Assembly (NCBI RefSeq): GCF_036588685.1
Contig: NC_086386.1
Span: forward strand, 49,414,001-49,478,000
Reading direction: 5' to 3'
Length of the DNA stretch: 64,000 bases
From: Mytilus trossulus
Taxonomy: Eukaryota
Every line of letters starts with the position of its first letter. Position 1 is the first letter of the stretch. Positions 11,615 to 50,300 of the stretch are shown in pieces. Made by a program: the position numbers and the translations under genes. The notes beneath the pieces were generated by a model. The model did no database searches. It was not told the origin of the DNA and was given only the letters and a program-made list of their open reading frames with translations.

Positions 11615-13550
11615 ATGGCTAGTCAATTACTGGATGTGTTCAATTATTCTTTTGAGTCCGAGGAGCATATTGAACACTCATCAAAAGATGATAAAAATGT
11701 GATTGAAGATTCGTCAAAAACCGAAACGAAGTACGAAATTTTTAAAACCGAAGAAAGTGGAAGTCAGATACATAGAAGAACCGAGTCGAAGGATCCAAAG
11801 GAGGAAATTAGTGACGAAAAAGGTTTGCCATCTAGTTTTGGCTTGACTTGTAGAACTTGCATTCTTTCAAACTTTTTATAAAGAGCCAGTGTCTAACCTG
11901 CTTTGATAATGAATCAAAATAGTTTTACTCAATACATTTACTACTATAATCGCGGATCCAAGTTTTAACATATATTATAGAATTAAGTTAGATTAATCAT
12001 AATATATTCGTAATATTTTTCTTGACTACGGATCAAATAATTAAACGTCAATAACAAATCTACTAGTCTCATATCCGAATACCATTCTATTATCATCAAC
12101 GATAATATAAACGCCGGAATAAAGGTAAAGTAGTAAAAAAATAATGTTATGGGATATCTTTCCATGACACAAAATCAGATCTTTCACATCAATATATGCT
12201 TTAAACTAACAAGTTTTCTTAACATCTAACAGTTTTAAAAGTGATATATTATAGGAATTATTTTACTTCCTTTTTCCCTTTCAGATCTTGACATTCTGGA
12301 AGCGGATAACGTTATCGCTCGTCCGTTCCAGAAGGTGTCTATATCTATTGAGTCCGACAAGCAGTTTGAACTTACAGCAAAAGAAGAGAACAATGTTGTT
12401 GCAAAATCCATCGTAGACGAACTGAATTACGATATGGCAAAACTCAAAGAGAGCGACGAGCAAGAAGAGGACAAACCTGATTTTACTGATAGAAGAGAAG
12501 CAACTGGCAGTAGAAAAAGATATCATAGTGGTATTCTTTTAATATTTCTGTTCCTCAAAATTGGTGTCTTACTTTCAGTGATCGCTACGCTCAAAACTGC
12601 TTATCATACAATCAATAAACTATTAAATAAAAAAATCAAATCAAATCCACAGTGTTGAATATATTTCATGTTCACATGAAAGAAGCCAAATTAATCTGTT
12701 TTCTGTATCTTGAATTTTTTTTAAAATCATTTAGTATTTTATTAGAAGAATACAACATAACTTATGTGTTTTCATTACAACTGTATAATTATATTTTTTA
12801 AAGGTATAATTATATCTCCTTTTACTTTCTGTTCTAGAAAACAATGAAGATGGTAATATGATTGCCAATCCGTTACAGAATATGTTCAAACTTGTGTCCG
12901 ATGAGCAATTGAAAAATACCACAAAAGAGGAGAAAACGGTTGTAGCAGAATTTTTGATAGCTGAACTGAATTACAACATGATTAAACTTAAAAAGAGCGA
13001 CAGTCAGAAAGATAAAAGTATTGAATCGGAGAAAAGGAAGGAGGTTTCAGGTGACAGCTCTGATGGCATTATGTCGGTAAAAAGATACTTGGAAGTTAAC
13101 TTTCCTAATAATACACCTGTCCTTGAAAATCATAATAAGAACCCGAGTAATAAAGAAGTGTTTGGTGCCAATGGAGAAAACGATAAAAGGGAACCCACTG
13201 TCGACTACACATGGTTAAAAAGTTCATCGGTGAATGATATTGCAATGTCACAGTTGGAGAATAAGGCACTACAAAAGGTTATCGGTCAGGTTAAACAGGA
13301 GGATTGCAACAAAATATTAGCTCTCTTTAGAAATTCAGTTCAAGACAAGGGCATTCAACAAGCAAATGAACTGCCTTCACTACTGATGGAAAGCGCATTT
13401 CAAGTTCTTGAAAAAAAGAGATCTGAAGATGTATTATTAGTTGATTTGTTACCGACTATAATTAGAAATAACAGTGAAGGATCAAATAGTGCTAAGGATG
13501 ACCATGCAAGTACTTCGGATGATCAACCTACGACAAATGACAAAGACTGA
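11615..13550 (+). CDS. RD3 (retinal degeneration 3)-domain protein, 3 coding exons, about 388 aa
   Basis: Exons 11615-11822, 12285-12530 and 12838-13550 have GT-AG borders, all phase 1, total 1167 nt open. Exon 3 resembles the RD3 fold: VVAEFLIAELNYNM, VDYTWL (RD3 VDYSWL), LENKALQKVIGQVKQEDCNKILALFR, ELPSLLMESAFQVL. An acceptor at 11586 implies an unlocated upstream non-coding exon. Confidence 0.75.
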
Positions 13551-15091: not shown

Positions 15092-17776
15092 TCATTGTCG
15101 TTTATAAATACATTCTTCTCCGTATCTATCCTTAATCACATGAAACATTAAAATGATTAAGTGTATCAATGCCACGTTTTGTCTCCCTGTTGGAACTGTT
15201 TGCATTAACGACTTTGTATAACACTCAAACGCTTTTTTAAAATCGCCATTATAGAAATAACAATACCCTAATATGTTCAAATGCCTGAAACTATGGAGAG
15301 TTCCTTCGCATTCATTCACTGTAGAGTCTAAAGCATCCATGTACATGTAAGCCTCTTGGTCACATTCGGTGCAAATCACGGCTAGGTATAACATATACAC
15401 TAATGGATGAATCAAGAAAGCTCTCCCAACGGTGCATTCGAATTTCAGAGCATGGGGAACAAGCGATATGTCTGCTCTAGAAAATATTACATCTTGAGCT
15501 GTAGAAAGATATCCTTTTTTGTGATCAAAAGGATTTGGAAGTCCTTTCAGTTGAGTTGTAGTACCATTAAAAAAGTGTAATGTCTTGTATTTAGAACAAT
15601 GACCAGTGTACAGTAGGTTTTGTGACGGCGAATCTAGGATACTCCGAATAATGGAAATCACTTTTTGAGTATTTTGGAGTCTTAGACAGTATGTAGCTAA
15701 ATATAATTTACCAGATAATGCATCAATATTTTGGTTATCGTCCAGAAACTTCTGTAACTTTTCCAGTTTTTGCTGCTTTACAGTATTATCTTTAACATTA
15801 ATGATCGTCTCTAAATACGTCAATGCAATTCGAATATTAATAAACATGCGTACAGCTTCAGTGAATCTGTCTTCTATGTCCGTTAACGGTTTGTGATCCT
15901 CAAAGCCTACAAAATATTCAGCAAGTAGCTTAAAGTCAGCAAGAACAGTTTCTATATTCACTCCTAAAAAGCCTCGACCCTTATGATAATATTCCAAAGC
16001 CAATTTGTATGTTTCAAATTCTGTTGTGATTCTAGAATCCAGTTTTTCTCTGCATAACTGCAGAAAATCATCAACCTTCATTTCACTGTCTAGCCATGGG
16101 GATAAAAGGTCAACACCACCGACACACTGCAAAACATGGGCTACAATATCGGCTGAAATATCTTCAATGCATTTGATCATATTTTCTTTAAAAATGTGAT
16201 TTTCAAATCTATACGAGAACAAATTTTTTCGACGATCAATGTAGTGCTCCAGATAACGTTTTTCTATGCAATGTTTTAGAAATAGAAGACAATTGATGGT
16301 GCAACGAAGTAAATATTTTGGTTGCCATAGATGTTGAGGATTATTTTCAGACTGCCAAAGAAGTACAGTTTTCATGTGATATGAGCTCAATTCTTCTGGT
16401 GCGATAGGGTGTAGAAATTTCTTCAAAATATTTTTCATCAAAATAAAGCATTGAAGCTGTGTATCATTAAAATTCCATACCAACTCCCTTTCTTGTAACA
16501 AAAACGATACTCTCCATTCTAATGACGATGTAGATGACATTTTGTCTCCAACAGCGACTACGTGACATTTCAACTTTGTAATTTTTTCGATAAATTCTGT
16601 AGAAGGCCATCCATATTTTCTTTCCCTGGTAATCCACTCTTCGCCATCAATTGGCCATTCGTACAACGATATTCCAAAGGCGAAATCTTGTTCCACTGAT
16701 GCACCTAGCTTTTCCTTAATAAAGCCGTATATGTCTAAATTAGCTGCAGTGGCACTTGGTCCATGACGGGATGTTTCTGTTGGCGTATCTGCTGTCTTCG
16801 TCTTTGTCAGGAAATACATCCAGAAATCAACCATTTTATCACTGGAAAGAAATGTTTTATCCCCTTCGGTCGTTACCAACATATCATCAATAGTCTTTCC
16901 ATGATCATTAAAAATTGTTTTTATGTTTGGATCAAGTTTTACAGGCATCAATCTAGCAAACCCTGGAAGGCAAACTGAACTGTCTAGAATAAAAACCTGC
17001 CCTTCGATATCGTTTGATTGGTCTCTATCCTTACAAGCCGTAATATTTGAAGCAACGATCATTTTGTCGATATCGCTGTCTTTCACGTTCGTTCCTTCAG
17101 CCGTACTACCACCAAAGAATCTGCGTATTACTCCTTTATTTCGTGTATAATACAAATACTCTAGTGTAAGCATAGTGTTCTTTTGACCTTTAGTCTTACA
17201 AGAAGATGCCATTGTAAAAAATGTTGCGTTAGAGACAACATCCGATACTTTTTCCAACTCAGTGTCATTAATCTGAAATTGAAAATATAAAGTGTTACTG
17301 TCTTAAATCTGTTAACCAGACTCCTATTGAATATGCTTGTTATTGCCAACATTCGTTTCGTTTATTTCTATACACTTTGCAGGTGGCCTATTTGTTATTC
17401 TTATAGATTATCGTTGATCATCTCAACGAGATTGATTTTCTCGCTTGAGACGGGACGATAAAAGCATTCGAGTTGAGATGACCAATGATAATCTGTTTAT
17501 CGCTATTTTACCTATAAAGACGTTGTCAGTTTCATGTCAATTTCGTTAGCAACGGCACGCGCTTCCTTAATTTCTAGCGATAATCTTCCATCTCAAGCGT
17601 GTATTATGATGTGAAAAATCATCACAAAAAAAAACCAAATGAACAAAATAGCGATAATAGTACCATACTTTCCAACCTCTGACAATAAGAAATCACATGA
17701 CATGTCAAAAAGCGTGTAAAAACTGTTTACTTGTGGAAAATTATACCTCAGTCACCTCTCGAGATCGTGCTAGCAT
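15092..17776 (-). CDS. cGAS-like receptor (cGLR; Mab-21 family nucleotidyltransferase) with C-terminal helical/TPR-like region
   Basis: Large exon 15092-17272 after a tttcag acceptor. Motifs: GGSTAEG..SDIDKM (GS plus DxD), third acid in QDFAFGI, WRVSF, LSSYHMKTVLLW, LEHY..KNLF, and TPR-like LNILGYCYFYNGDFKKAFECYTKSL. A candidate phase-0 first coding exon at 17747-17776 (MLARSREVTE|gtataa) is less certain; the alternative start is the ATG at 17212. Confidence 0.88.
17402..17657. mobile_element. Crypton-like hairpin element, copy 1 (in the predicted cGLR intron)
   Basis: Internal inverted repeat attatcgttgatcatctcaac / gttgagatgaccaatgataat, and ttatcgctatt / aatagcgataa. Highly similar to 18182-18457. 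Confidence 0.6.
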
Positions 17777-21900: not shown

Positions 21901-24900
21901 CACTACCAATAATTTACCCATACTTTTTTGGTACATTTCTACCCTCGTGCATATCAGTACTGTAAGGAAAGACTGAAAACTTATAATGTTATACTTTCAA
22001 TGAAATCAGTACTGATTTTGTCAGTACTGTTTCAGTACTGATTTTGACAGTACTGTTTCAGTACTGATTTTGACAGTACTGTTTTAGTACTGATTTTGTC
22101 AGTACTGTTTTAGTACTGATTTTGTCAGTACTGTTTAAGTACTAATTTTGACAGTACTGTTTTAGTACTGATTTTGACAGTACTGTTTTAGTACTGATTT
22201 TGACAGTACTGTTTCAGTACTGATTTTGTCAGTACTGTTTCAGTACTGAATTTGACAGTACTGTTTCAGTACTGATTTTGTCAGTACTGTTTCAGTACTG
22301 ATGTTGACAGTACTGTTTCCGTCAGTAATGATTCAGTACTGATTTCGTAAGTAGTGGTTCGTTACTAATTTCTTCAGTACTGTTTCATTATAACACTTTA
22401 AATCAGACTGTATCTGTATAGATGCCTAGTTGTTTTGAATATTTGGGGTGGGTTAATTGTTCTCTTTGACACTAACCCCATTTCCATTCATTTTCTATAT
22501 CGTGACATGTTTATAAAGATCACATAAATAGACCGATGGTTAAAGCTACACGTGTATGAAATACTTGCCACTGGCAAACACCAATACTTTGATGATGATG
22601 AAATAAATTATCATATTTTCCTTCTTTTTTTTTATTTAGAAACAAATTTCAACTTTGATTGATTATAATAAGACATGTAGTATCAGAAGTCCAGTCAATT
22701 AGTGATTACTGGACTTATGGTAGTATATAAAGTAATAAGTAAATTTTGATGTCATACCATTCCCTTCCATAATTGTGCATTCCTTTTATTTTTACATAAC
22801 ACAGAAATGAGGAAAGTTTTAACATCAGAAAATGTATTGTAGCCTAGACCTGTTGGTGACCTTCTGCTGTTGTTTTTTATTTGGTCGGGTTGTTGTCTCT
22901 TTGACACATACACCATATCCATTCTCAATTTTATTATTTATAAATTCATTACATTTTCTTTCCTCAGAATGATTAACAGCAATGGAGACAGGAGCAGACA
23001 TGGGAAAGTTCGATGTGAAAATTGAAGACCTATAAACAAAATGATGTATCAATATGGCACTCATCAGAAAAAAACAACCAACATTTAATCATGAACCATT
23101 GAATCCGGAGTTTCGTTCAAGTACCAAAACATTAAAGGTGGATGCTTATAATGAGCTCATATTAGAACTAAAGTGTCCTCTTGAATTACCACTGTATATG
23201 TACAAAGATACATCATATCCGGGACTGAATTGGGGAAAAGAGCCAGGAAACTGACATTCAACAAAGCATTCCAAAGAAAAGATGGCATAGGGGGAGAGCA
23301 ATGAAACATGATACATGCAAAATTAATTGTTTCTTTGATTGTTTTATTTATGAGCTTTAAAAGGTCATAAAATAACCAAGGGGCATGCAAATGACAGAGA
23401 TTTTTGCCACAAACTTCACATGTTGGTATGACATTGAATGTTTTATTAAATATTAGAAAATGATTATGATAAATAAAAGAAATTCCAGTTATGATTAATA
23501 ATAAGGTAATCGAGACATTGTTTTGTGTTGATTATAATGCATTGCCTAACATAGTAACATATGACTGCATTAATTACAACATATTTTAAGCAATAGCAAA
23601 ATACCAAAAAATGAACAGTATTGAAGATTCTAATCTTGTTTGATATAGATATAAATTATGCGCTATTATACAATTGATACTGTAAAATATCAGCCTCGAA
23701 CCACAGTGTGAATCTTCCTGATGTTGAGTGCGTATTATTTTTATAAACACTGAAAGACAGTCACAATCAAAATCAAGAAGTAAGCAAAGAATCACTAAGC
23801 GAAAGGGCATTTACAACAACACATTGAAAAATACATATATATAAAAACAACACGAACTCCATTAAAAACCGGGAGTGAATTCAGGTGCTCCTAATGCGTA
23901 TTATTTTTATAAACACTGAAAGACAGTCACAACCAAAATCAAGAAGTAAGCAAAGAATCACAAAACAAAAGGGCATTTACAACAACACTTTAAAAAAAAA
24001 ACATAAAAGACAACACGAACTCCATTAAAAACCGGGAGTGAATTCAGGTGCTCTTAATGGGTAAAATCCGATAAACTGCTAATCTTGCTTCATTTCTGTT
24101 GTTTTCTCCTTCGCCTCAATAGTTTTTCGATAGACAAGAGTGAGCTTGATCATTTTCCTTGGTCATGTTCACGTCGCTAAAAAAAATCTGCGCAGCAGGG
24201 TGATATAGTCAAAGAGAAAAACGTAACCAGCTAAAAAAGGATAATAATAATATTGCCACAGAATTATCAAACCTATATTTGGATACCAATTGTACTGAGA
24301 TGCACATTGTAAAAACTTCTCTAATGATAAACACTTAATCAGAGATATCTACAAAAGATACAAAATATGCCACAAATTATTATATAGCATACTTTACTTT
24401 ACCGATTTTAAAAGTTTTCAGTTCCAAATATTTTTTGAAACAATACACATTCAAGTTAAAAAGATTAACAACACCAAATCTACAAAAACAGTACTGAAAA
24501 TAACAATACCGAAATAGTACTGTCAACATCAGTACTGAAACAGTACTGACAAAATCAGTACTGAAACAGTACTGACAAAATCAGTACTGAAACAGTACTG
24601 TCAAAATCAGTACTAAAACAGTACTGTCAAAATCAGTACTGAAACAGTACTGTCAAAATCAGTACTAAAACAGTACTGTCAAAATCAGTACTGAAACAGT
24701 ACTGACAAAATCAGTACTGAAACAGTACTGTCAAAATCAGTACTAAAACAGTACTGACAAAATCAGTACTAAAACAGTACTGTCAAAATCAGTACTGAAA
24801 CAGTACTGTCAAAATCAGTACTAAAACAGTACTGTCAAAATCAGTACTGAAACAGTACTGACAAAATCAGTACTGATTTCATTGAAAGTATAACATTATA

Positions 24901-26195: not shown

Positions 26196-28340
26196 CCCGT
26201 GGGGGAGGGGGGTTACTTCCTATGTTTTTAGTGGTATGAATGTGCTGCAAAACAGGGTCGCCTTTTCATGCCCTGCTGGTGAGAACATGGCCTTTTTTAA
26301 AACACAGTATGTGTCTTCAGCAGGATCGCTTATTAAACTGTTTTATATACAGTCTATAACCTGGGTGCAAAACAGGATCTATTTTATATGGTCTAAAACA
26401 TATAGGAATCTGTCTAGGACAGGGCCTACATTTACTGAGAGTGTCTAGAACAGAGTATGTTTTTCAATATTTCTGTTTAGAACAGGGTGTTTTTCAATAT
26501 TTCTGTTTAGAACAGGGTATATTTTTCAATATTTCTGTTTAGAACAGGGTATGTTTTTCAATATTTCTGTTTAGAACAGGGTATGTTTTTCAAAATTTCT
26601 GTTTAGAACAGGGTATGTTTTTCAATATTTCTGTCTAGAACAGGGTATGTTTTACAATATTTCTGTCTAGAACAGGGTATGCTTTACAATATTTCTGTCT
26701 AGAACAGGGTATGTTTTTCAATATTTCTGTCTAGAACAGGGTATGTTTTTCAATATTTCTGTCTAGAACAGGGTATGTTTTTCAATATTTCTGTCTAGAA
26801 CAGGCTATGTTTTACAATATTTCTGTCTAGAGCAGGGTATGTTTTACAATATTTCTGTCTAGAACAGGGTATGTTTTTCAATATTTCTGTCTAGAACAGG
26901 GTATGTTTTTCAATATTTCTGTCTAGAACAGGCTATGCTTTACAATATTTCTGTCTAGAGCAGGGTATGTTTTACAATATTTCTGTCTAGAACAGGGTAT
27001 GTTTTTCAATATTTCTGTCTAGAACAGGGTATGTTTTACAATATTTCTGTCTAGAACAGGGTATGTTTTACAATATTTCTGTCTAGAACAGGGTATGTTT
27101 TACAATATTTCTGTCTAGAACAGGGTATGCTTTACAATATTTCTGTCTAGAACAGGCTATGTTTTACAATATTTCTGTCTAGAACAGGGTATGTTTTACA
27201 ATATTTCTGTCTAGAACAGGGTATGTTTTTCAATATTTCTGTCTAGAACAGGGTATGTTTTACAATATTTCTGTCTAGAACAGGGTATGTTTTACAATAT
27301 TTCTGTCTAGAACAGGGTATGCTTTACAATATTTCTGTCTAGAACAGGGTATGTTTTTCAATATTTCTGTCTAGAACAGGGTATGTTTTACAATATTTCT
27401 GTCTAGAACAGGGTATGTTTTACAATATTTCTGTCTAGAACAGGGTATGTTTTACAATATTTCTGTCTAGAACAGGGTATGCTTTACAATATTTCTGTCT
27501 AGAACAGGGTATGCTTTACAATATTTCTGTCTAGAACAGGGTATGTTTTACAATATTTCTGTCTAGAACAGGGTATGTTTTACAATATTTCTGTCTAGAA
27601 CAGGGTATGTTTTTCAATATTTCTGAGGGTATGCTTTACAATATTTCTGTCTAGAACAGGGTATGTTTTTCAATATTTCTGTCTAGAACAGGGTATGCTT
27701 TACAATATTTCTGTCTAGAACAGGGTATGTTTTTCAATATTTCTGTCTAGAACAGGGTATGTTTTTCAATATTTCTGTCTAGAACAGGGTATGTTTTTCA
27801 ATATTTCTGTCTAGAACAGGGTATGTTTTTCAATATTTCTGTCTAGAACAGGGTATGTTTTACAATATTTCTGTCTAGAACAGGCTATGTTTTACAATAT
27901 TTCTGTCTAGAACAGGCTATGTTTTACAATATTTCTGTCTAGAACAGGGTATGCTTTACAATATTTCTGTCTAGAACAGGGTATGATATACAATATTTCT
28001 GTCTAGAACAGGGTATGTTTTACAATATTTCTGTCTAGAACAGGCTATGTTTTACAATATTTCTGTCTAGAACAGGGTATGCTTTACAATATTTCTGTCT
28101 AGAACAGGGTATGTTTTTCAATATTTCTGTCTAGAACAGGGTATGTTTTTCAATATTTCTGTCTAGAACAGGGTATGCTTTTCAATATTTCTGTCTAGAA
28201 CAGGGTAGGTTTTTCAATATTTCTGTCTAGAACAGGGTAGGTTTTTCAATATTTCTGTTTAGAACAGGGTATAATTTGAAAAGTGTTGTCGGCATAGTTA
28301 TACCAAAAATGACAGTCAGTAACACCCCTCTTCCTACGAG
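26196..28340. mobile_element. Non-autonomous TIR element with 8-bp TSD carrying a minisatellite
   Basis: TSD TTTTGAAT at 26188-26195 and 28341-28348. Imperfect TIRs CCCGTGGGGGAGGGGGGTTACT and (reverse complement) CTCGTAGGAAGAGGGGTGTTACT. An empty paralogous site is present near 20068. Confidence 0.8.
26443..28272 (+). repeat. 32-bp tandem array (GTCTAGAACAGGGTATGTTTTWCAATATTTCT), about 57 copies
   Basis: Directly visible, with few variant positions and one internal deletion near 27625. No spacers. Confidence 0.97.
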
Positions 28341-32320: not shown

Positions 32321-35300
32321 CTATGACAATATAGTAGAAAATTTATCTTTAAAATCTAACGAGTCTCTTGAGCTCTCATTATCACTGAAGACTTGACTTC
32401 TAGTCACTCTTTTTAACGGAGTATTATCAGAATCGGTATAAATATTTTCTACATCTACAAAACCATGGTTAGAATCGGTAAAACTTTTACGTGACGATGG
32501 CGAATCTGATCTCATTTTCAATACACGCCTAAAACTTCTAATACTAGCAGGAGAATTCTCCCGACTACTTCTTGTACTGAATGCTTCCCGACTGTCTGAA
32601 TCGTAACCATTGTCTGTTTTACGACGAGAACTTCTTGTAGCTGGTCCTGGAGAATTTCGATCCAATAAACCATTTTCACCATTTACAATATGTGAAGGTG
32701 TACGAGGAGAGCCACGTGCATTTTTGCACCAACCATTATCACTGGGAGTGCTAGCTCGGGATGGAGATATTTCGTTTAATACTCTTGATATAGATCTTCT
32801 CCCGTTCACAGGAGACAAACAAATTGGAGAACTGATGTTACTATTCACACAATTTTCTTTCTTTTTTGATCGATCTATCATTCCATTGAGGAAATTATTT
32901 CGTAAAACTCGCTTATTTTCTAATAGTCCTTTTTGTACAGTATCTTTAATATAATCTGCAACCACTAATTTTGAACCAAGTATATAATTGTTCAATTCAG
33001 CTTTTACTCGGTCAGTAACATTGCCCGCCTTTGAGGATTTAGACAAATTTCTTATTACACTTATTTCTTTTGGTTCATCTTTGATACTTATAGAAGAACT
33101 TCTTAATTCACGTGGAGATTTAGAATTTTCATTGGCAAACATATCAGCATCACATGTTTGTCTTCGTGTCCGTAATTCACGTTTTATTGGTGAAACTGAT
33201 GGATCAAAATCTTCCTCTTCATCAAAAGCTTTGGTTTCTAACGAATCTATTGTTTTTCTTCTTATCCGTTCATGTTTAGAAGTGTCTGCTTTAATCAGAC
33301 TTATACCTGTAAAAGTTGTACTACGAAGACGGTAATCACCACTTTTTGTCATGTCCACTTCATCAGGGCTCATAATAAAAACATCACAGAAATTTCTCTC
33401 CTTCAACTCTTTTTTACGTTTATATCTTTCCTTCTTAGTCTGAACTAACCTATCTGGTTCAATAGTCAGAACATTCCTTAAGTTTTCAGTCACTAACTTT
33501 CCAGAAAATCCCAGTTCTGAACCGGCATCACCCGCATCCTTACGCGGTGATAAGGATGATAGTTCAGGAATATAGTCTTGTGTGTCATCATCTTGCAGGA
33601 GAAAGTCGGTAAAACTTCTTTCCCTTTTTTCTAAATGCAAGTCCTCGATTTCTTCTTTAATGTCAGGGGATGTTTCATAAGCACTAGGGTCAAAATTATA
33701 GTATATATTCTGTTCTGGGTATAATTCCGCTATTTTTTGTGCCTCTCTATCTGAGAGACGCATGTCAACTAATGCGTCATTTAGTCCATGGAATGCTTCT
33801 ATTCTAGATTTATAGTACTGTTTCTTCATCTTCTCACGTTTACTGACCATATAACACAAATTACGAACCTGTAAAATGAATGAGAGATTGTTAATATTTG
33901 CCAATCATAACATGAAAGTATTCATTTCTTCATAAAAGCTAAATAAGTGATGTCCATGAAGTTGGGGCCTCTTCTACAATCATGGATTGTAAAAAAAAAC
34001 AAAAAAACAGAGATGTTTATAGATCTTAAAAGCCATATTCAAATTCTGAAACGGGACCAGAATTCATTTGTAAAGAGTTTTCATCTAATTTGAAAAAAAA
34101 TGAAAGATTTTTTTTTTACAATAGCTTAAACACGTACAGAATATTTTTGTATGATTTAAAAAATTCTAACTTGCCCACATAAGCAAAGACAACTCAGATA
34201 ATTTGATTATATAAAGAAATGTAGAGAAAATTTACCTATCATGTTATGTTACAAGAAAACAAGAACAATGACTCCCATGTTTCTTTTCTGTCGGCACATA
34301 CACATCTGGTATGAGCTTTTTCTCCTATGTGTTCAAAATGTTATGCTTATATTTTATGTTTAACCCTGGTTAATTCCTACTAAGTGCTCACTTCTCATAT
34401 CTGATTTCAAAATTCTTGTTTTTTTTTTTTATTTCCTGGTACACAAGTACTTTTACATGTATAATTCTTACAATATTTGAAAATGTCTGTGACACATACC
34501 TTTTATTTATATTTTTCAACAAAAACTTTAAAATTATATTTCTGCAAAGGATTGAAAAATTCTACTGGCTTAAACTAAGAAACCCTTATAACTACCAATA
34601 ATGCTGCAATCAACCTTCCACATGTGAAAGATACACCATAAATGTTTATAGATAAATATTATTTACAAAAATTAGCTCTATAATTGTGATTGATCTATAA
34701 TTAATCTGCACTTTGTAAAACTCTTTACCCTTTCTAAATCTTGTCGTAGTTGTACAAACATCTTCATTCTGGACAATAAACTATCTTCTTGTTGTTTTTC
34801 AAAGAAATCTTCCTCCTCAGTTTTAGGTGTTAATAATGGTGCACCAAACATGGACTAAAAACAATAAAATAAAATTAAATATGTATAAATGTAAATATCA
34901 AAAGTTAATTCTGAATAATAATTATGGCATCCATATTCTCCTTTTTATAACCCTTATCAATCAGGTACAAAGAGTGATTAAACAAAATTATTATTGGGTG
35001 GTAGAAAACACTGCTCTTCATATTGCTTCAGTTGTATGTATTTTGACAAATGAACAGTTTTTAATCAGTGCTTATTTCAAAGCCAAGGTTCTATCTGTAT
35101 ATTAACATTCTTCTCTCTGTTGGAACTGTTGATACTAAATTTTAATGGAAACAAACTTCTAATTCACCTATAATTTTATTTTCCTTAAGTTTTTATCTGT
35201 ATAAATTTTACCTACAAAGCACCACATTCAAATTAAATTGTACATGTTTTACATGTCTTCCATTGTTGGTCATTTGAAAGTTATTACCTTAAATAACTAT

Positions 35301-38300: not shown

Positions 38301-41300
38301 TTTAGTTCCACTCCTGTAAATACAAATTAATATCATGATTGAAACAACTATTTAATGTCAGTCTTTGTGAGGTATAGTCTGTTCAACTTTTAACTATATT
38401 TACTCAGAGGTAGGGTGCCCATAAAACATAACTCACTACTGCTAAGAAAGGATTACAAGTTTGAACTTTGATATTAACTGGAACCTAGGTAATATTTCTG
38501 CATATTTTATTTATATTGAAAGCAATTTTTTATATATTGATTGAATGGAAAAGGAAAAGGAAAAGTAATAGTAAAATTATACCTTGTACTTTTCATTGCG
38601 CCACTAGACCTAGGACACAATATACAGGTAGGTTTGATTCCTAGAGCACAAGGTCTGCACAACCAACTACCTTCAGGGATTTTCTGTATACCATAACATG
38701 CCTGAAAATATGCATAAATTCATCAATAGAGTAGTTGTTAAATGATTGCAAAATGGGTTTTACATAAAAGTTAAACCATTCAATGGAAAAATTAACTTTA
38801 ATAGTCTAAATATGGAATTCCAAATATCATTTTTTCACAAAAATTAAAACAGAAGAACAAAACAAATTGAAATGAACAACAAATTTAGTTATCAAAGTCA
38901 GCTGATTTTATAGCAAAATTGGCACATATACAACAAAAAATTTCACAATAAGTATGCATAAACAATTATAAAACTTCAGTAGAAAGACAATTTTTCCAAA
39001 ACAGTTTCATAACACATTGCATAAATCAGCAAAAGTTAAAGGAATCTAATGGACATATTTGTAAAATGTCAACAGACGAAGCGTTCAAGCATAACTGATA
39101 CCTAATTAACAGAAGGCAGGTGCAAGGAATATGGACAGTTTACAGATTTAAGAATGTCTTCTTTAATGCATGAATAATGTATGACAAAGATTAACTACTT
39201 GTGAATTGCTGCTGAAGTTAATGAACTTTCTTCCTTACCTGATGAACACAAATATCACAGCCATCACAAAACACCATCTCATTACATTCTTCACTCTCAG
39301 GCTGTAAATTAAATCATAAAATATTTTACAAATAAATATAATTAAAATTTTCTAATCATGACATGCAAGATAAGATTTTATATAACTGAAATTTGAACTT
39401 CCTCAGGATGAACATGAATGTGTTGATAGAACATGTGTGCCCTGGTGCTTTGTAGAGAAGCTGCAAATGTCAATTTTCAAGTTTTTGTTTTAATTCATTA
39501 ATTAAACTCTGTTTACTTTATTCACTGAACTTTGGCTTATTGGTAAATGTCCCATTAATGATAGGATTAAAACCATTTCAAACGCAACTGAAAAGCAAGT
39601 TTTGATTATGTTTGCTGAGGAATACACTTAAAAGGTGTGCATTGATTATGTTTGCTGATGAATACACTTAAAGCTGATGAATACACTTAAAAGGTGTGCG
39701 AGTAGCATAATCAAAAAGTTCTTAGCTTGGCCAATAAATTTCTACAAGTAAGCACATATCATTAAAGTATCAGATTATGTTGAATGGACTTCTTATAAGT
39801 CATTATTTCAGACATCTTATATGTCATTATTTCAGACATCTTATATGTCATTATTTCAGACATCTTATATGTCATTATTTCAGACATCTTATATGTCATT
39901 ATTTCAGACATCTTATATGTCATTATTTCAGACATCTTATATGCCATTATTTCAGACACCTTATATGTCATTATTTCAGACACCTTATATGTCATTATTT
40001 CAGACATCTTATATGTCATTATTTCAGACATCTTAAATGTCATTATTTCAGACATCTTAAATGTCATTATTTCAGACATCTTATATGTCATTATTTCAGA
40101 CATCTTATATGTCATTATTTCAGACATCTTATATGTCATTATTTCAGACATCTTATATGTCATTATTTCAGACATCTTATATGTCATTATTTCAGACATC
40201 TTATATGCCATTATTTCAGACACCTTATATGTCATTATTTCAGACATCTTATATGTCATTATTTCAGACATCTTAAATGTCATTATTTCAGACATCTTAA
40301 ATGTCATTATTTCATACATCTTATATGTCATTATTTCAGACATCTTATATGTCATTATTTCAGACATCTTATATGTCATTATTTCAGACATCTTAAATGT
40401 CATTATTTCAGACATCTTAAATGTCATTATTTCAGACACCTTATATGTCATTATTTCAGACATCTTATATGTCATTATTTCAGACATCTTAAATGTCATT
40501 ATTTCAGACATCTTATATGTCATTATTTCAGACATCTTAAATGTCATTATTTCAGACATCTTATATGTCATTATTTCAGACATCTTAAATGTCATTATTT
40601 CAGACATCTTAAATGTCATTATTTCAGACATCTTAAATGTCATTATTTCAATGAAATACAAAGACAAACATGTATTTAAAGCATATTTTTTTCTCATTTA
40701 ATTTAATAACATCTACATGTCAAGAGTGAGAAAAAAACACCATCAACTGACACGGTGTATGGCATGAAAGCATTAAGTCTTTAGATGCAAATTTTCTGTG
40801 TTCCATTAAAAATGGACAGTTATACAACTTACAGATCTACACACTTCACAGACAATATCTTCATCATATTCTATTCCTAAGCCTTCTTCTGTCTTTTTCT
40901 TCTTCTCTGCTTGTTCATAATACTAAAAATATCATTAATAGATTTGTAATGTAATTTAATGAGGTAAACAAAAGATTTCAAACTGTTGTTCCCTGTATGT
41001 TGTACTGATAATTCTGAGATTTATAAAATTATTGGTGTAATCTTGAACACATTCAACACTTTTCATGCTGCAGGGCTAGAGCTGTATCATTGAAATACAT
41101 AATTATTTTACAATTAGACTTTGATAATAAAAAAAACCATTTTTTTTCCCTCTTTGATAGTAAAACATTTTTCCCAGTCATTAAAATTGTATCTTTTGAG
41201 AGAACAAAAGAATTAGAACATTTCTGAAAAAGAAGTATATCATAACCTGCAGACCAGTATTTATTGCAAAAAAAACATGTGTTAAATAAAGTTTCAATTC

Positions 41301-44300
41301 AAAATACCTGGTTTTCTAATCCTTCTATAACTCTTTCCATTATCCATTCATGAATATTTATCAATCCTGCAAAGTATTTTTTATAACATTAAATAATATT
41401 ATATATAACAATATAATATAAAGAAAATAATATTCGCTATACAACCAGTATTATATTTGCTTGTATAAATTTACAGCTTTGATTGGCATCTATAGATTGT
41501 TGAAGATTGCATTTATATAACACTTTTCAGACAATTTCTTCTCAACTACATAGATTTCAAATCATTCAATAATGAGCAAATTTTAACTTTTATATTTTTT
41601 TCCACTGTAGATTTTTAACAAGAATGTGCCCAAAGTACACGGATGCCCCAATGACACTATAATTTTCCATGTTCAATGGACGATGAAATTGGGTACAAAA
41701 TCTAATTTGGCATTAAAATTAGAAAGATCTTACCATATATATATAACTTTATTTCCTCTATTATAGAGATTTGGTGTACATGAAATATATAAATTACAAA
41801 ATTACAAAAAACAAAGAATTAAAGTCACTGTTTAAAGTTAATATGAGAAAAAATGAGCACTGTTTATAATATCGATAACGGACACATCTTCTATCGATTG
41901 TAGAAATCTCTGCAGATTTTTTCAACGTGACGAACACAAGTCTTAGAGAAAAAAGTTAATTCATCGTTTTCTAATTCATATGACGTATTGCAAGAGAGAA
42001 TTGTTGTTGTGAATTCATGTGCCGAAAGACTGTCCATAAAAACACTGAACTGAATGGGATTAATGTTAATAATGTCTTGCCATAAATCATCTCTTTTGTC
42101 TTGAATAAAATCACAGGATACTAGTAAGTGTTCAACGATATTCAGGAAGAACTTTCCACATTTGTCGCAAAGTAAATGTCCATCTTCATAACGTACTATA
42201 GAACATAAGTCAATAACATACTTGGCGGAGGCACGAAGTTCGGGAAACTGTTTCGCAATTGTCCATGCTTTATGCGGTTTGATTGCAGAATGAATACGTC
42301 TAAACATATAAAAGTCATTATCGCATGAAATTCGGTAAGACCACCATGTTTCTTCACTTGCGTTTATATTCTGATTTACAATAACTGACCAAAGTTTTTT
42401 TGATGGGAAAGAACCAGTATTTGCAAAATTGACAATATAATCTGTAATGTTATATTTTTCGGCTGCTTTATAGATGTCAGGTATAAAACCAAGTTGTTCT
42501 GGAACACATTTATGTTTGAATTCCATAAGTCTGCTTATCATTATTCGTTTTGGTAACGCAGAAGACTTTAACCTACACAGTCTACCAAAAAATAAAAGTT
42601 TACATCTGTTGATAATGCTTTCAACTGAAAACCAACCTAGAAGACTTGTACATTTATCAGAACGGGTTCGTTTTGGAAGTCCTTGAATGATTTTACACAC
42701 AAATCTGTGAGATCTTTCTAACATCGTAATTTCTGTTTGAGTCAAATTGTTCCATAACTCACAACCATATAGAGCTTTGCTGTAACAAATTTGAAGTATT
42801 ATCTTGGAACACGTCAAAGGGTTTAAAATTGATGGATGAATTCCAGAATTTAGAACTGAAAGAGCAGTTGATCGCAACACTCTACAAGCATTCAACGTCT
42901 GGTCCATTGATCTAAATTTACAGTTCAAAAGAATACCGACATGTTTGGCAGACGTCACGAGTGGTATGATGTCATTATATAAAGTTAGATTGCTTGAAAC
43001 ATTCTTGTTCTTCTTTGAATAATGTAAGACGTTGCTTTTGGTCGGAGAGAACTTGAATGCCCACTTCTCGCTATATGTCTGACACATGTTAATAAGGTGT
43101 TGCATTCCTTTTTCTGTTGTTGAGAGTAACGCAATGTCGTCGGCTTGAACAGAGCTGCTTACACTGATATCTAGAAGAACGCATCCCAATTTAGAATCTT
43201 CAATGTCACACAAAAGATCGTTTATGTATACTAAATATAACAGAGCTGATAAGACGCCACCTTGGCGAACGCCTCGTTTTAGTTCAAACCAACGAGATAG
43301 CCTACCATTGAACAGTACAGAACTACGCATCTCACTGTACATTTCATCTATGAGCAGCCATAAATCACCGGTAACTCCATATTTATGCAGTTTACATAAC
43401 AATGCATCATGCCATACAGTGTCGAAAGCTTTCGTGCTATCTAAAAGAACAACTATAACATCGCTGTTACGTTCAATGTAATGACGAATCGGTTCTTGTA
43501 AGTTAAATGAAGCGTGTATACTTGATAATTCCTTTTGGTATGCCATCTGAGATTGATGTGGAAACTTTATGTGCAAGGAGTCGAATCGAGGATAAAGAGA
43601 CTTTTCGAATATCTTAGCAATACAACTTGTTAACGATATACCGCGGTACGAATTGGGATCGGTTTTGTTTTTATGTCCACCTTTGAATAACGGTATTATT
43701 ACACTTGTTTTCCAATCTAGAGGAGTATAACGTGTTTGTATTATCAGGTTGAATAGATTGCATAAGTGTTTTTGCAATGTTTTACCACCATATTTTATAT
43801 GCTCATATGAAACGTTGTCTAAACCTGTAGATTTGTTGTTACATAAACATTTACAAATGTTGTAAATTTCTTCAAACTCAAATGGGTTGATTGGAACTTT
43901 GATTTCCTTCTGCGTTTGTCGTATTTTATTCACCTTAAGTTTTACCAAATTTATGTTTGCTGAGTTTGTTAACTTGCTATCAAACTGAAAAATGGATTCA
44001 AAATGGTCCGCCCATGCTTCGCATATTTCGCTTTCGTTTGTATGAGTTACTCCATTTAAATTTAGTTCACGACAAAAAGTTTTCTGTTTACGTCTGCTTT
44101 TTAAGACCGACCATACATATCTTTGATCATTGTCGATAGACTCTTCCATTCTGTTGGCAATGTTCATAATATGTTCGTTGTAAGCTTTATCCATTTCATT
44201 TCTGAAAGTCCGTTTTGCATGTTTGTAATCAGCAAAGAATTGATCGCTTCTATCGTGAACTTTTCCGTTCAGTATCCATAAACTGCGCTTATTTAGCATT

Positions 44301-47300
44301 GTTTTGTGTGATAGATCTACGACTTTCGTCCAATAAGGCTTTATATGTTTCACAAATTGCTTATGTGGGAGTGTTTCCTTGTCAGCTTTTTGAATAGCAA
44401 CTATAATAGTCTTATAGTAGAGCTCGATATCTTCTTTGGTCGCTGGTTGTGAAGGCATTTGAACAGACCATAAAAATTGTGAGACTGCAAATGAATAGTC
44501 GTTAACTGAATTCGTTTCTAACGCTTTGGTCCACGATACTTTGTCAGCCATAACACTTTCGTATAAGTTGTCACTATCAGCATGACATTGTTCAATTAGT
44601 AAAGTACACGCGATAGGCTTGTGATCAGAAACGTTAAAAATGCTTTCGTCTGGGACAAACACATTGTAAATATCTCGTGTATTTTCGTTATTTGTGACTA
44701 TGTGGTCTATCCCTGTTTTTGGACCATCCTCATAAGATTGAAATGTACATACCGGACCTTTGGCAAAGTCCTGAACATGTAATGATATACTGTTATTGTC
44801 AATAAGGAGACTTTCAAGAAGTTGACTACGACGATCCTGAGTAAACGAATATCGTGGTCCACCAATCTTGCAGTTGAAATCACCAAGAATAAACACCGTC
44901 CCATGATTCGAATACGATTTGTATATGTCCATTAAGTATTCAAGTTCATTAACAAATGCTTCGTTGGGTTGTGTAATTGCTGGTAAGTATATAGACAGAA
45001 AAAATATGCTAGGTAAATTAGGAAGTTTTAGTTCGATACCACATATCCTATTGCTATCAATGACTAATTCTGTGACATACGGAGATAAAGTTTTAGAGAC
45101 CATAATCGCAACACCACCACGGGCGCTAAAACTGTATTTTTCAGGGCAGTGTTCATCGGCGCATTTTCCAAATACTAAATAGTTTTGTTTATCGATTGAA
45201 TTAAGGAAGTGGAATTGTGATTTTCTCAGCCAGTGTTCAGATAAACAAATAACATCAATCTTATTATCATTTAAGAATTCTTGTAGATACGGTACTGCGG
45301 ACATAATTCCGCGACAGTTCCAACATGCTATGTTTAAAGACATTTATGGATGTTCGGTCTTTGAAGATAGAAAAACTGACCATGGAAGCCATTCTTTTAG
45401 AAAAATGCCTTCAGGCCAAAAAGAAGGATCCCGTATTAAGCTTTCACATTGAGCATCGATATTAAGTTGCGCAGAAGCTGTTCGTCGGTTTTGTTTATCA
45501 AAATATCTTAAATGTGTTACATTAACACCTCTTGCAGCGAGATATTCACGCATAGATTCTTCACATGAATTGTGTTTGTCGATACCACCTACGTAGAATC
45601 TGGATACACGGAGTCTTGTTTTTTTAACAAATCCACGAAAATTGTCAACAGTTGTGGGATTACACATGGAAGTTGGAAAATGCACTTGTATATTTGTATT
45701 TTGTTCATTTCCTGATATATTGTTGTTGGTGTTCTTGATTTTATTTTCTATTGAAGTAGACGGAGCTGGATTAACAACATTACTTTGTACATGTATGTCT
45801 TTGACTAAAACGGACAAATTCGAAACATCAGAGGATCTGACGTGTTTTGTGTGTGAGTCAACTAGAGAATTGGAATGTTCATTAATGGTATTCCTTTGAA
45901 TTGGCTTTGTGGACTGACTCAAATCGGATTCAATCACATTGTAATTATCTAATGCTTCAGCTGAAGCTGTAACTTGTTTAGATTTTGATTTTAGAATGTC
46001 TGCGTACGATTTTGTAGACTTGTCAAGGACTTTGACATCTTTCTCGGTGTTTATGATACGTTTTCGCAAATCACTAATTGACCTCGTGTGAGAACAACAA
46101 TCAATATTTACTTTTTTGAGTTCATCGTCAAATTCTTTCAGTTTATCACTCATGATGTTTGTTTTTGTTTTTAGACTGACAACGCCTTGCGCTCGTGTAT
46201 CACTTAGCTGGTTAATTCTACATGACTCAGATTTCACGCTTGAACGTAGTTCGTTAACGTCTAGTTTTACTGTTTTAAAGTCGTTTTTTATTTTGTTTAC
46301 ATCTGTCGTTAACTGTTGAATGCTGTTTTCGTATTCATCAAGTTTGTTTCGGAAAGTTCCTGAACTTTTTTCAATTTCTAATTTATTTGATTTGCAGATC
46401 ATTTCCGCTTCGTGTGTAACGACACTCATGTTGTTAACTGTTTTAGCTAGGTTTTCGTTGTTATCTCGTAAGGATGAAATTTGATTCTGAAAGTTCCGTA
46501 ACCGGTCATTGTTTTTCTGGTTAGCATTGACCAGTTGCTTGTTTTCTCGTACTAATACAGAGACGGTTTTATTCAGATATTCGATTTCCTGAGTGTAGTC
46601 GCCTTTCAATGTATTAATTTCTCTTTCTATGCGCACGAGAGTCTCTTTCAGACACAAGTTCTGAGAAAATTCGCTGGAATGTGTTTGGTTATTTTCATCT
46701 GCTGTAGATATTTTTCGGGCACTTTGTGTATGCGAACGAGTATTAAGTGTTAATCTTAAATCTTCCGTATATTCTCCGAGTGATGCTAAATAAAGCGCAT
46801 AGCAATCGCTACCAAGTTTGTTTTCAACTGATTCACCGTTAGGTTTTCTAGGATAAAGACGCTTTTTAAGAGTTGCATTCAGATATGGAAAGTTATGTTG
46901 ACATTTTGCAATTTCCAGAAGTGCGTAGCGAATGTCGTCAATTTCACAATGTGCGTTTTGGCATTTATCAATTAATTTAGACACAAAGCTGTCTTTAGGT
47001 AAGGATAAAAGTTCATCTTGGATAAATTTTATTATCGATTTTGTTATGCTTGTATCGTTGCTTATGTTGCTTGTGTTGGAAGGAACATCTATTATAATGT
47101 TTGTTTGTCTTTGTGACGAAAGAAGATCATCAAAAGGATCAAATTGACTATCTATAAAACTCGAGTGAACAAGTAGATCGCTGGGTCTAAGTTCCGTTAG
47201 ATTATTCATGATATATTAGATATGTTGTGAATCGCTGAAAACAGTTCACAGTGATCTGATTTTGAAAATCAATACATGTTTATGAAGTAATATCTGTTGA

Positions 47301-50300
47301 TGTTTTGAAATTCTTTTTATCAATATGGTGTTGTTGAATGTATGGAATGATCTCACCAAATTCTTGATCTTTGAAGATGTATGAAAACTGTCCTTTTCTA
47401 GAATAATAACAAGAGCACATTAACAACACGTCCTTCACTAAGGGACATAATCCAATGCCCCAATGACACTATAATTTTCCATGTTCAATGGACGATGAAA
47501 TTGGGTACAAAATCTAATTTGGCATTAAAATTAGAAAGATCTTACCATAGGAACATGTGATTTTAGTTTCAATTTGATTGGACTTCAACTTCATCAAAAA
47601 ATCCCTTGACCAAAAACTTTAACCTGAACTCACACTTTCATTTTCTATGTTAGGTGAACTGTGAAATTGGGGTTAAAAGTCTAATTTGGCTTTAAAATTA
47701 GAAAGATCATAAAGAACATGTGTACTAAGTTTCATGCTGATTGGACTTCAGATTCTTCAAAAACTACCTTGACCAAAAACTTAAACCTGAAGCAGGAGAT
47801 ACGGACGAACTATCGTAGGGGGGAAGGGGGCATGAAAAAAGTTATGCTTGAACTAATTGGCGATATCACCAATAAATAAAATTTTCCATCACATGTTTAT
47901 ATTTACCTAATCCTAATCTTTCTGCATTCATACTGTCTAACCAAGACACATCAAGGTCATCAAGATCATACCGTACAACTTGATCTGCTAACTGTTGCAT
48001 CCCTGTCAGCTCATGGTCACCTTGTTTATAGCTTTCATCTTTACAACTGTGTAATAGTTTTCTAGGCCTGAGATAAGTAAAGTCAAAATCAAACATAATA
48101 AAAAGAATGATTAATAATACCAAACAAAAGTTTTATCAGACTGTAAATATTGCGAATTTTTAAGAAAGGACAAACATGCACGATTAAAATTGCAATTTCA
48201 GGAAATCTGCATAGAGATTTTTGTATCATCTATATGAATGTGAGTTTATGCTATTGCAATACTCACCTAGTTGCAATATTTGCAATTATCAAAACCTTGC
48301 AATAGTTTTTGAATTTTTGAAAATACATTAATAACTTTGGCCTGTCAAAACTTACGTCGCATATATATTCATGCTGTTATGAATGCATAGAATGAATTTA
48401 AATGACACACACAAAATATGTTCTGACCAAACTTTGTAACCATAATACAATAGTTCATACAATGCTTCTTTATCAATAGATTTACCACTGAAAACCTTTT
48501 ATTAGTGTTTTCCCTGATATTCACCAGAAGATTTAGAAGTTATGAAGGTGAATTCTGAGACTCAACAATTTAAGCAATGATGATTCAACAGCAGGGAAAA
48601 ACGATTTCACAGTCTTAATCTATTATAGATTTGTTCAAGACTACCTTTCTTACCTCTATTACTACTTTTTACTAGAGTACTTACATTTTAAAATCTCCAG
48701 TTGTTTTTGCTTTTTCCCCATTCTCCCTGAAAAAAAAAGCAACTTTTATAATCAACATCTAATATAAGAATTAATAATTCATGTATTTATATACATTTTA
48801 AAAGTATGTGTGTCATGGTCAATTTGAACAAAATTTTATCCCACGATTTACATTTATTTTTCTAGCATGGTCTATTGCTTCTTGTGTATTATACATTAGT
48901 CCCATTTGTTCAAGACTACATGTTTGCAATCTGAATCCAGGCTTATCAGTGATGTATATGGGCCAAAAATAAAATATTGCTTGTTTCCCCAATCCAGACC
49001 AACTCGGCAAAAATGGTGCTACTGATAAAATGTTATTGTCACAACTATGTCAAATACTATTTTATTTATTTTTGGATTTTCAGGCTTGCTAGATTGTCCA
49101 CTAACGTTCAATCTTTTTGGAAAATAAAATCATTTCCCTACTTACCTACCCACACCTGGCTTGACAGGGTGGGGATTGGGGAAACAAACAATATATTAAT
49201 TTAGGCCTTATGCAATGTTTTGTATAAATCCTGAATATCACAGATGGCTCATTTAAAAGAACATTCAAAGATAGACTGTGTTAATTATATAATTTGCATG
49301 CTTAAAATTGAGATAATGACAATGATAGATAGCTGTTTAACAATCAGTTACATTCAAAAACAAGAATGTGTCCCCAGTACTCGGATGCCCCATCTGCACT
49401 GTTTAACAATCAGTTTCTTCCAAAAACAAGAACGTGTCCCCAGTACTCGGATGCCCCATCTGCATTGTTTAACAATCAGTTACATCCAAAAACAAGAATG
49501 TGTCCCCAGTACTCGGATGCCCTATCTGCACTGTTTAACAATCAGTTACATCCAAAAACAAGAATGTGTCCCCAGTACACGGATGCCCCATCTGCACTAT
49601 CATTTTCTATGTCCAGTGGACTGTGAAAAAAGGGGGAAAATCTCTAATTTGGCATTAAATTAGAAAGATCATATCATCCGGAACATGTATACTAAGTTTC
49701 AGTCTGCATGGTTAGCCACTAGTCCGATGCCCCAGACTAATAAAATTTCATTCTGACTAGTAAGTTTTTTGCAAAACCTTGTTTGAACAAATAAGAAACA
49801 TGTCAGGGTATTGTTCTTTGGACTAGTAGTTGATCAAGTTTTTGGTGCAGACTGCAGTTTCTGATTAGACTTCAACTTCATTACAAACTACCTCGACCAA
49901 GAACTTTAACCTGAAGCGGGTCAAAAAGACGGATAAACGAACGGACACACAGACCAGAAAACATAAAACCCATAAATTGGGCATAAAAAGCATGTTTTAA
50001 TATGGACAATAAGTTGTTAATGTAATATGTATATTAGCTGGTTTTATACAACACCTCGTGCTGAGATTGATTATTAACATACTTGTTTACAGGGTAGCAG
50101 TCTACAGGGAACCATGTTAACAAGACATTTAATTATGATTCTTGCCAAAAGCAGCAAATACCAATTTTTAAATCTTTGGTTTGCCACCTGCTAGGGGCAA
50201 ACATGATTTGGAGATGTGGTGAGGACTTCAATTACAATTGAAGACTAAATCCGAGAAAGAGATTATGATCAGGTATCAATTGATGAAATATTTTATTTTT

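Follow-up and report, generated by a model that had tools for sequence, protein, structure and literature searches.

How does a long interspersed nuclear element (LINE) come to lie between two perfect copies of a 95-bp repeat, and is that length set by the element? The question is raised by a 64,000-nt stretch of the mussel Mytilus trossulus genome (NCBI RefSeq assembly GCF_036588685.1, contig NC_086386.1, positions 49,414,001 to 49,478,000 of the forward strand), referred to here as the window and numbered from its first letter, which carries an intact LINE that we assign to the Proto2 clade. We find that long, variable target duplications are common in the Proto2 clade of this Mytilus genome; long target-site duplications (TSDs) themselves are known from other elements. 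The locus is laid out as follows, with L numbers denoting individual loci, ORF an open reading frame and UTR an untranslated region.

41617-47797 (41617-41737 plus 47455 to ~47797), no strand: interrupted host repeat of very high copy, its internal ~166-bp units 80% alike
41643-41737, + strand: 95-bp TSD copy next to the 3′ end of the element, within the host repeat, identical to 47455-47549
41738-47454, - strand: full-length LINE assigned to Proto2, 5,717 bp, two intact ORFs, both ends common to L002, L003, L004 and L006
41738-41890, - strand: 3′ UTR, 153 nt, terminating AATAAAGT(TA)n, the tail at ~41738-41745 overlapping TAT of the target
41891-45343, - strand: ORF2, 1,150 aa, with apurinic/apyrimidinic (AP)-like endonuclease at residues 8-241, reverse transcriptase (RT) at 559-777 (QADD motif) and a C-terminal Cys/His motif
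45344-47209, - strand: ORF1, 621 aa, with a coiled-coil-like middle and its ATG at 47209
47210-47454, - strand: 5′ UTR, 245 nt, beginning TGGATTATGTCCCTT
47455-47549, + strand: TSD copy at the element's 5′ end, identical to 41643-41737
49557-49701, + strand: uninterrupted relative of the host repeat with one homologue of the 95-mer, 79% over 146 columns, crossing both junction positions

As a preliminary description of the window had reported, the two 95-mers are identical (95/95 positions). Their identity continues for 0 bases beyond the repeat in both directions, and they abut the 5,717-bp element at both ends. They are not long terminal repeats (LTRs), again in agreement with that description, because sister copies share the first and last bases of the element but not the 95-mer. 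We also rejected 3′ transduction, which would not repeat the flank on the 5′ side. When the element and one 95-mer were removed in silico, the remaining site aligned unbroken with 49557-49701 (79%) and with 6 other host-repeat copies (72-86%; 19 matches in fetched loci), bearing out the proposal that the target was an older host repeat and the duplication a true TSD. The pre-insertion site is represented only by these diverged paralogues holding one copy, and the fetched loci contained no further 95-mer copy at ≥90%. In short-read contigs of runs X1 and X2, matching ends at 47455 and 47457, the element's 5′ end; host-repeat contigs of run X1 have a depth of 1e4-1e6 compared to ~50 in unique flanks. 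Other copies of the host repeat continue into ACGG/ACAG-type runs, and with its ~166-bp units the repeat may be akin to pearl/BIV160-type bivalve elements.

Similar duplications surround other copies of the same family. Our genome search for this family yielded 30 loci, with 40 of 404 candidates scored; setting aside 12 loci whose 3′ end was absent in the main match, and counting L024 and L025 once for their shared flanks, left 17 distinct loci, window included. Duplications running from tail to 5′ junction were present in nine, with lengths of 95 (window), 357, 1,527, 1,500, 296, 54, 808, 664 and 382 bp, or in 8/16 sister loci alone, all with an intact 3′ end. One locus, L004, is ambiguous owing to its position in a minisatellite, and seven have no duplication within 10 kb, among them L028 with partial matches. 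Positives were concentrated among copies ≥97% alike to the window copy (8/10 vs 1/7 among the rest). Divergence of the TSD pair and divergence of the element were uncorrelated within the family (rho 0.30, P 0.43, n=9). The preliminary description had placed the second-strand nick about 95 bp from the first and proposed tabulating family TSDs, which could have turned out uniformly short; the sister lengths span 54-1,527 bp, with no two alike near 95, and therefore there is no fixed ~95-bp stagger. Lengths in the family are widely scattered, and the 95 bp of the window are among the shorter ones. As a separate observation, in the upstream flank of L013 a detached 100-bp 3′-end fragment of this family precedes the truncated copy by ~50 bp.

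We compared Proto2 with RTE-X, another clade of LINEs, using a single script with 1.5-kb flanks on 150 loci from five families (3 Proto2, 2 RTE-X). The comparison excluded loci without a 3′ end, copies <97% identical to the query and second copies of a duplicated locus, and counted duplications of ≥50 bp as positive; satellite cases (L004, L202/203, L139 and L140) were not scored as TSDs. Among young Proto2 copies, 17/31 had a junction-to-junction duplication, 12/31 had none and 2/31 lay in satellites, whereas long duplications were found in 0/38 young RTE-X copies (Fisher P 4e-8, to be read with the caution that copies are non-independent and the true units are 3 vs 2 families). Longer flanks added Proto2 cases at L206 (2,812 bp), L212 (~2,010 bp), L223 (331 bp) and L234 (~3,600 bp) and revealed no duplication at 10 other Proto2 loci. 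In 10-kb regions of RTE-X, 0/15 loci from six families had a long duplication outside two satellite cases. Duplications of 508 and 670 bp came from two further families; that of L111, 223 bp in a tandem repeat, is doubtful. The 25 pooled lengths, the doubtful L111 among them, have a median of 475 bp, with 22 of ≥100 bp and 7 of ≥1 kb; the overall Proto2 range is 54 to ~3,600 bp. No class of short TSDs was seen in Proto2, just 6-7-mers near both junctions, and 9/38 RTE-X copies have an 8-9-nt exact repeat near both junctions, which may reflect chance. Other LINE clades yielded no usable full copy among the fetched loci to serve as controls. We consider it very probable that the long-duplication trait is linked to the clade.

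Several lines of evidence indicate that these are very probably real TSDs. L007 has a young RTE-X-like repeat as its target and lies in the RT region there, and in the empty paralogues of this site (98-99% identical) the 54-mer is single and the flanks continuous in 8/8 fetched of the 40 listed. At L020 the 382-mer was found solely on both sides of its element. Empty paralogues of L204 were also sought, and its duplicated part had no other match. The duplication pairs have aged: their identities range from 95-100%, and some pairs at 95-99.5% carry later insertions in one copy. At L223 one TSD copy is interrupted by a later 1,253-bp element (seen in L276, the flank of L223) that has tandem units inside and terminal inverted repeats of ~25 bp, at L234 a repeat has inserted into one copy, and at L212 a 706-bp piece is present in one copy only. 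Aged pairs with later insertions in one copy are not what an assembly error would give.

The junctions bear the marks of target-primed reverse transcription, both in the overlap of tail and target and in the types of 5′ join. Each of the 16 duplications shown opens with TA or AT in continuation of the (TA)n tail, in keeping with what target-primed reverse transcription predicts. By eye, tail and target overlap by ≥2 nt in 16/16 and by ≥3 nt in 13/16, compared to 24% and 10% at random window positions. In the window itself the tail runs into TAT of the target, the microhomology at the priming site that the preliminary description had pointed out. At the 5′ end, full-length copies (L001, L002, L006, L233) join with 0-4 added bases and no microhomology, and truncated copies either share microhomology of 1-6 nt or have gained 0-8 bases.

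The element itself has the features of an AP-endonuclease-type LINE. ORF2 places an N-terminal AP-like endonuclease ahead of the RT (Pfam Exo_endo_phos and RVT_1), and its predicted structure (mean predicted local distance difference test score, pLDDT, 84) has as best fold match full-length human L1 ORF2p, matched over full length (E 4e-37). The element lacks LTRs, ends in a (TA)n tail and heads a series of 5′-truncated copies with different flanking repeats at each copy. Four sister copies are 99.8-100% identical to it, consistent with the young family proposed earlier, and the top homologues come from Mytilus edulis (97%) and M. trossulus (99%). ORF1 matched no Pfam family above the cut-off, all its Atlas matches were <0.9, and the named ones among its 7 homologues are all from Mytilus. 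At 45341-45346 the sequence TAAATG places the ATG of ORF2 directly after the ORF1 stop TAA, in frame, an arrangement that suggests stop-start reinitiation or readthrough.

An affinity to RTE elements had also been proposed, and this stands at the level of the RTE group but not for the RTE clade proper. By eye the window RT stretch is nearly identical to that of M.edulis_270_LINE (Data S2 of Martelossi et al. 2023, PMC10294476), which Table S7 of that survey assigns to RTE/Proto2 via the authors' tree, and the 5,717 bp of the window element compare with a mean Proto2 length of 5,675 bp in bivalves given there. On these sequence likenesses we place the element in the Proto2 clade of the RTE group. 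We rejected the RTE clade proper (RTE-1, BovB; single ORF, ~3.2-3.6 kb, TSD 7-15 bp), as the window element has two ORFs, 5.7 kb and family TSDs of ≥54 bp. The sister families scored with it share its RT motif QADD, have 44-62% ORF2 identity to it and group with it at support 100 in a FastTree RT tree built with no named references; one is linked to the Proto2 entry M.edulis_162 through a 15-residue motif. The control families have only 21-24% ORF2 identity to the window element, form a separate clade in the tree and are linked to the RTE-X entries M.edulis_43, 140, 219 and 279 through 15-residue motifs. A metagenome scan for relatives with flanks in other organisms returned a single 1,001-bp contig, from which flanks were absent.

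How could such duplications arise? On balance we favor a second break far from the first as the source of the long, variable duplications seen in about half of young Proto2 copies and in no RTE-X copies, with the trait probably set by the element or its encounter with host repair and not by a genome-wide repair defect. The first nick and priming would proceed normally by target-primed reverse transcription; the top-strand cut within ~20 nt would not occur; unwinding would instead reach a distant, variable second break; and joining followed by gap fill would duplicate the intervening target. This route is the model offered for human L1 in cells deficient in nucleotide excision repair (NER), where TSDs range from 5 bp to 5.3 kb with a median of 1,495 bp (Servant et al. 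2017, PMC5223499), compared to at most 10% of TSDs >100 bp in HeLa cells according to the same source. The two cases share a 3′ junction of the target-primed type and highly variable TSDs of a few bp to several kb, but the L1 case reflects a host defect in cultured cells and the mussel case concerns inherited insertions in a wild-type animal, in one of two tested clades. Human L1 ORF2p is reported to make its top-strand nick at +7 to +19 nt (Ghanim et al. 2025, PMC7617806). The window ORF2 model resembles it in overall fold and domain order, but a nick at +7 to +19 holds TSDs near 20 nt, a geometry that cannot yield 54-3,600 bp.

Several observations weigh against this reading. Of the 12/31 young Proto2 copies without a duplication in 1.5-kb flanks, L206, L212 and L223 became positive with longer flanks, and the remaining 9 still have none in 5-10-kb flanks. 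The scripted controls were RTE-X only, with 1.5-kb flanks in which duplications up to ~2.9 kb are detectable. We looked in public short-read contigs for an empty allele at the window locus and did not recover it; the host repeat swamps the joints there and makes it unresolvable. At L020 a short-read contig of run X1 covers the tail, the 382-mer and the downstream flank with 0 differences, but the upstream junction is in no contig, and its depth of 26.8 does not clearly indicate two copies (filtered records, X1 being possibly the source sample); no empty allele of L020 was found and no contig joins across the element, junction spanning having been examined in short-read contigs. The ORF2 model has no extra domain to explain the trait: helicase, RNase H or other added domains were looked for by Pfam and predicted fold, and none was seen. 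Finally, a distant second break and a loop-back of the cDNA are indistinguishable from sequence.

In such a loop-back, a single nick would suffice: the cDNA 3′ end would invade the top strand, still unbroken, or else a replication fork, at a point some way downstream, and extend back to the first nick, and the resulting heteroduplex loop would be fixed by replication or repair, with the same product as a distant break and the same dependence on the element. The broad, unpeaked spread of lengths, the 1-6-nt microhomologies at truncated 5′ ends and the restriction of short matches in Proto2 to 6-7-mers all suit it, and PMC7617806 refers to a model of L1 insertion through replication intermediates. 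Against this, the microhomology-free 5′ joins of the full-length copies L001, L002, L006 and L233 fit template jumping onto a free 3′ end, and we consider the loop-back unlikely. A host-wide effect, in which the mussel germ line is slow on all LINE intermediates (a weakness of the NER or ERCC1-XPF kind) and any LINE could acquire long TSDs, would match the length range of L1 in NER-deficient cells. It is at odds with the absence of positives among equally young RTE-X copies in 1.5-kb flanks and among the 15 RTE-X loci in 10-kb regions outside two satellite cases. Families could still insert in differing cell types or stages; we regard the effect as improbable.

Ordinary insertion into DNA that was tandemly duplicated beforehand, or later through unequal exchange, applies to the satellite copies (L004, L202/203, L111, and RTE-X L139 and L140) and likewise to the element's second copy on C40. 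As a general origin it is very improbable: 16/16 shown duplications run from tail to 5′ junction within a few bases, the single 54-mer of the empty paralogues refutes it for L007, and later exchange would also duplicate the element. Equally hard to sustain is an assembly artefact in which an empty haplotype was fused with one that carries the insertion; identity reaches 100% in many pairs and the L020 upstream junction is missing from short-read contigs, but diverged pairs carry later insertions, abutment is exact at both ends and RTE-X copies of the same assembly have no duplications. A fixed, enzyme-set stagger of ~95 bp, like that of R9 elements, suits the window copy alone and is refuted, with practically no probability left to it, by a single family that spans 54-1,527 bp with no two lengths alike near 95 and with targets unrelated except for TA/AT.

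Two loci carry arrays of these elements. On C40 (2511051-2551050; L264, L107, L108, L263), the 2,812-bp repeat, the element and the repeat are followed after ~580 bp by a second copy of both element and repeat, 99.96% identical and beginning at the 5′ junction of the element, which may be a later duplication or an assembly duplicate. On C13 (41380350-41420349; L265, L103, L104, L266), two Proto2 copies, separated by 10,151 bp, sit inside a 1,054-bp satellite in the order X-E-X-E-X, where X is ~5.2 kb at 99.8% identity vs a background of 97.5-98%; this is possibly a 5-kb TSD amplified through unequal exchange.

Long target duplications have precedents outside Proto2. C. elegans RTE-1 is reported to have long repeats of ~200 bp. 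R9 of bdelloid rotifers (Gladyshev and Arkhipova 2009) is likewise a non-LTR family with an exceptionally long TSD. It is specific to ribosomal DNA and is reported to have a fixed 126-bp TSD and a restriction-like endonuclease; Proto2 is dispersed and AP-endonuclease-based, and its lengths vary over nearly two orders of magnitude. RTE-clade LINEs resemble the window element in belonging to the RTE group, in combining an AP endonuclease with an RT and in their microsatellite tails, but the TSDs reported for them in the parts of the sources that we draw on are short: 7-15 bp in a survey whose search was limited to 10-49 bp and would miss the mussel duplications (PMC6007223), 10-12 bp (PMC1291365) and up to 20 bp (PMC2887409). 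The main text of the bivalve survey (PMC10294476) gives no LINE TSD lengths, calls them hard to find and does not describe long, variable duplications. Our literature search turned up nothing on long Proto2 TSDs, including in the accessible parts of PMC7943196, PMC4455052, PMC7846101, PMC2912911, PMC2861651 and PMC3175473; Repbase Reports and most bivalve-survey supplements lay outside the search, and prior mention is possible.

The window holds several other features. A 736-aa open frame at 15095-17302 (- strand) with matches to the Mab-21 nucleotidyltransferase, Mab-21_C and TPR looks like a cGAS-like receptor gene. A short frame at 47866-48132 (- strand) has a weak EPL1 match (E 8.5e-4, below the cut-off) and is a possible exon of a Jade/BRPF/EPC-like gene; the LINE may therefore lie in an intron. 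Further frames are found at 12810-13547 (+ strand), with an RD3 domain, and at 32324-33904 (- strand), with 527 aa and no Pfam match. Tandem arrays of 26 bp at 22006-22349 and 24486-24876 are mutually inverted and 2.2 kb apart, and others lie at 26442-28272 (32 bp), 39787-40650 (24 bp) and 49333-49598 (66 bp).

Among the steps by which a LINE inserts, second-strand cutting and joining is the one least well settled, and Proto2, with duplications of 0.05-3.6 kb, beside RTE-X, with none, offers a natural contrast that domain swaps and nicking assays in vitro could exploit. The trait may have been widely overlooked because standard TSD searches limited to ~50 bp miss long duplications. It is conceivable, and we suggest it tentatively, that Proto2 as a whole clade, across many marine invertebrates, normally inserts with no second nick close by and in most insertions duplicates between 0.05 and several kb of the host's DNA, as a natural, element-encoded counterpart of the L1 phenotype in NER-deficient cells. 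If so, Proto2 would be a hidden source of tandem duplications, steadily supplying bivalve genomes with exon-sized local copies, and recombination between its long direct repeats would be able to excise the inserted copies or multiply them, making it a self-erasing element; two loci show repeat-element-repeat-element arrays.

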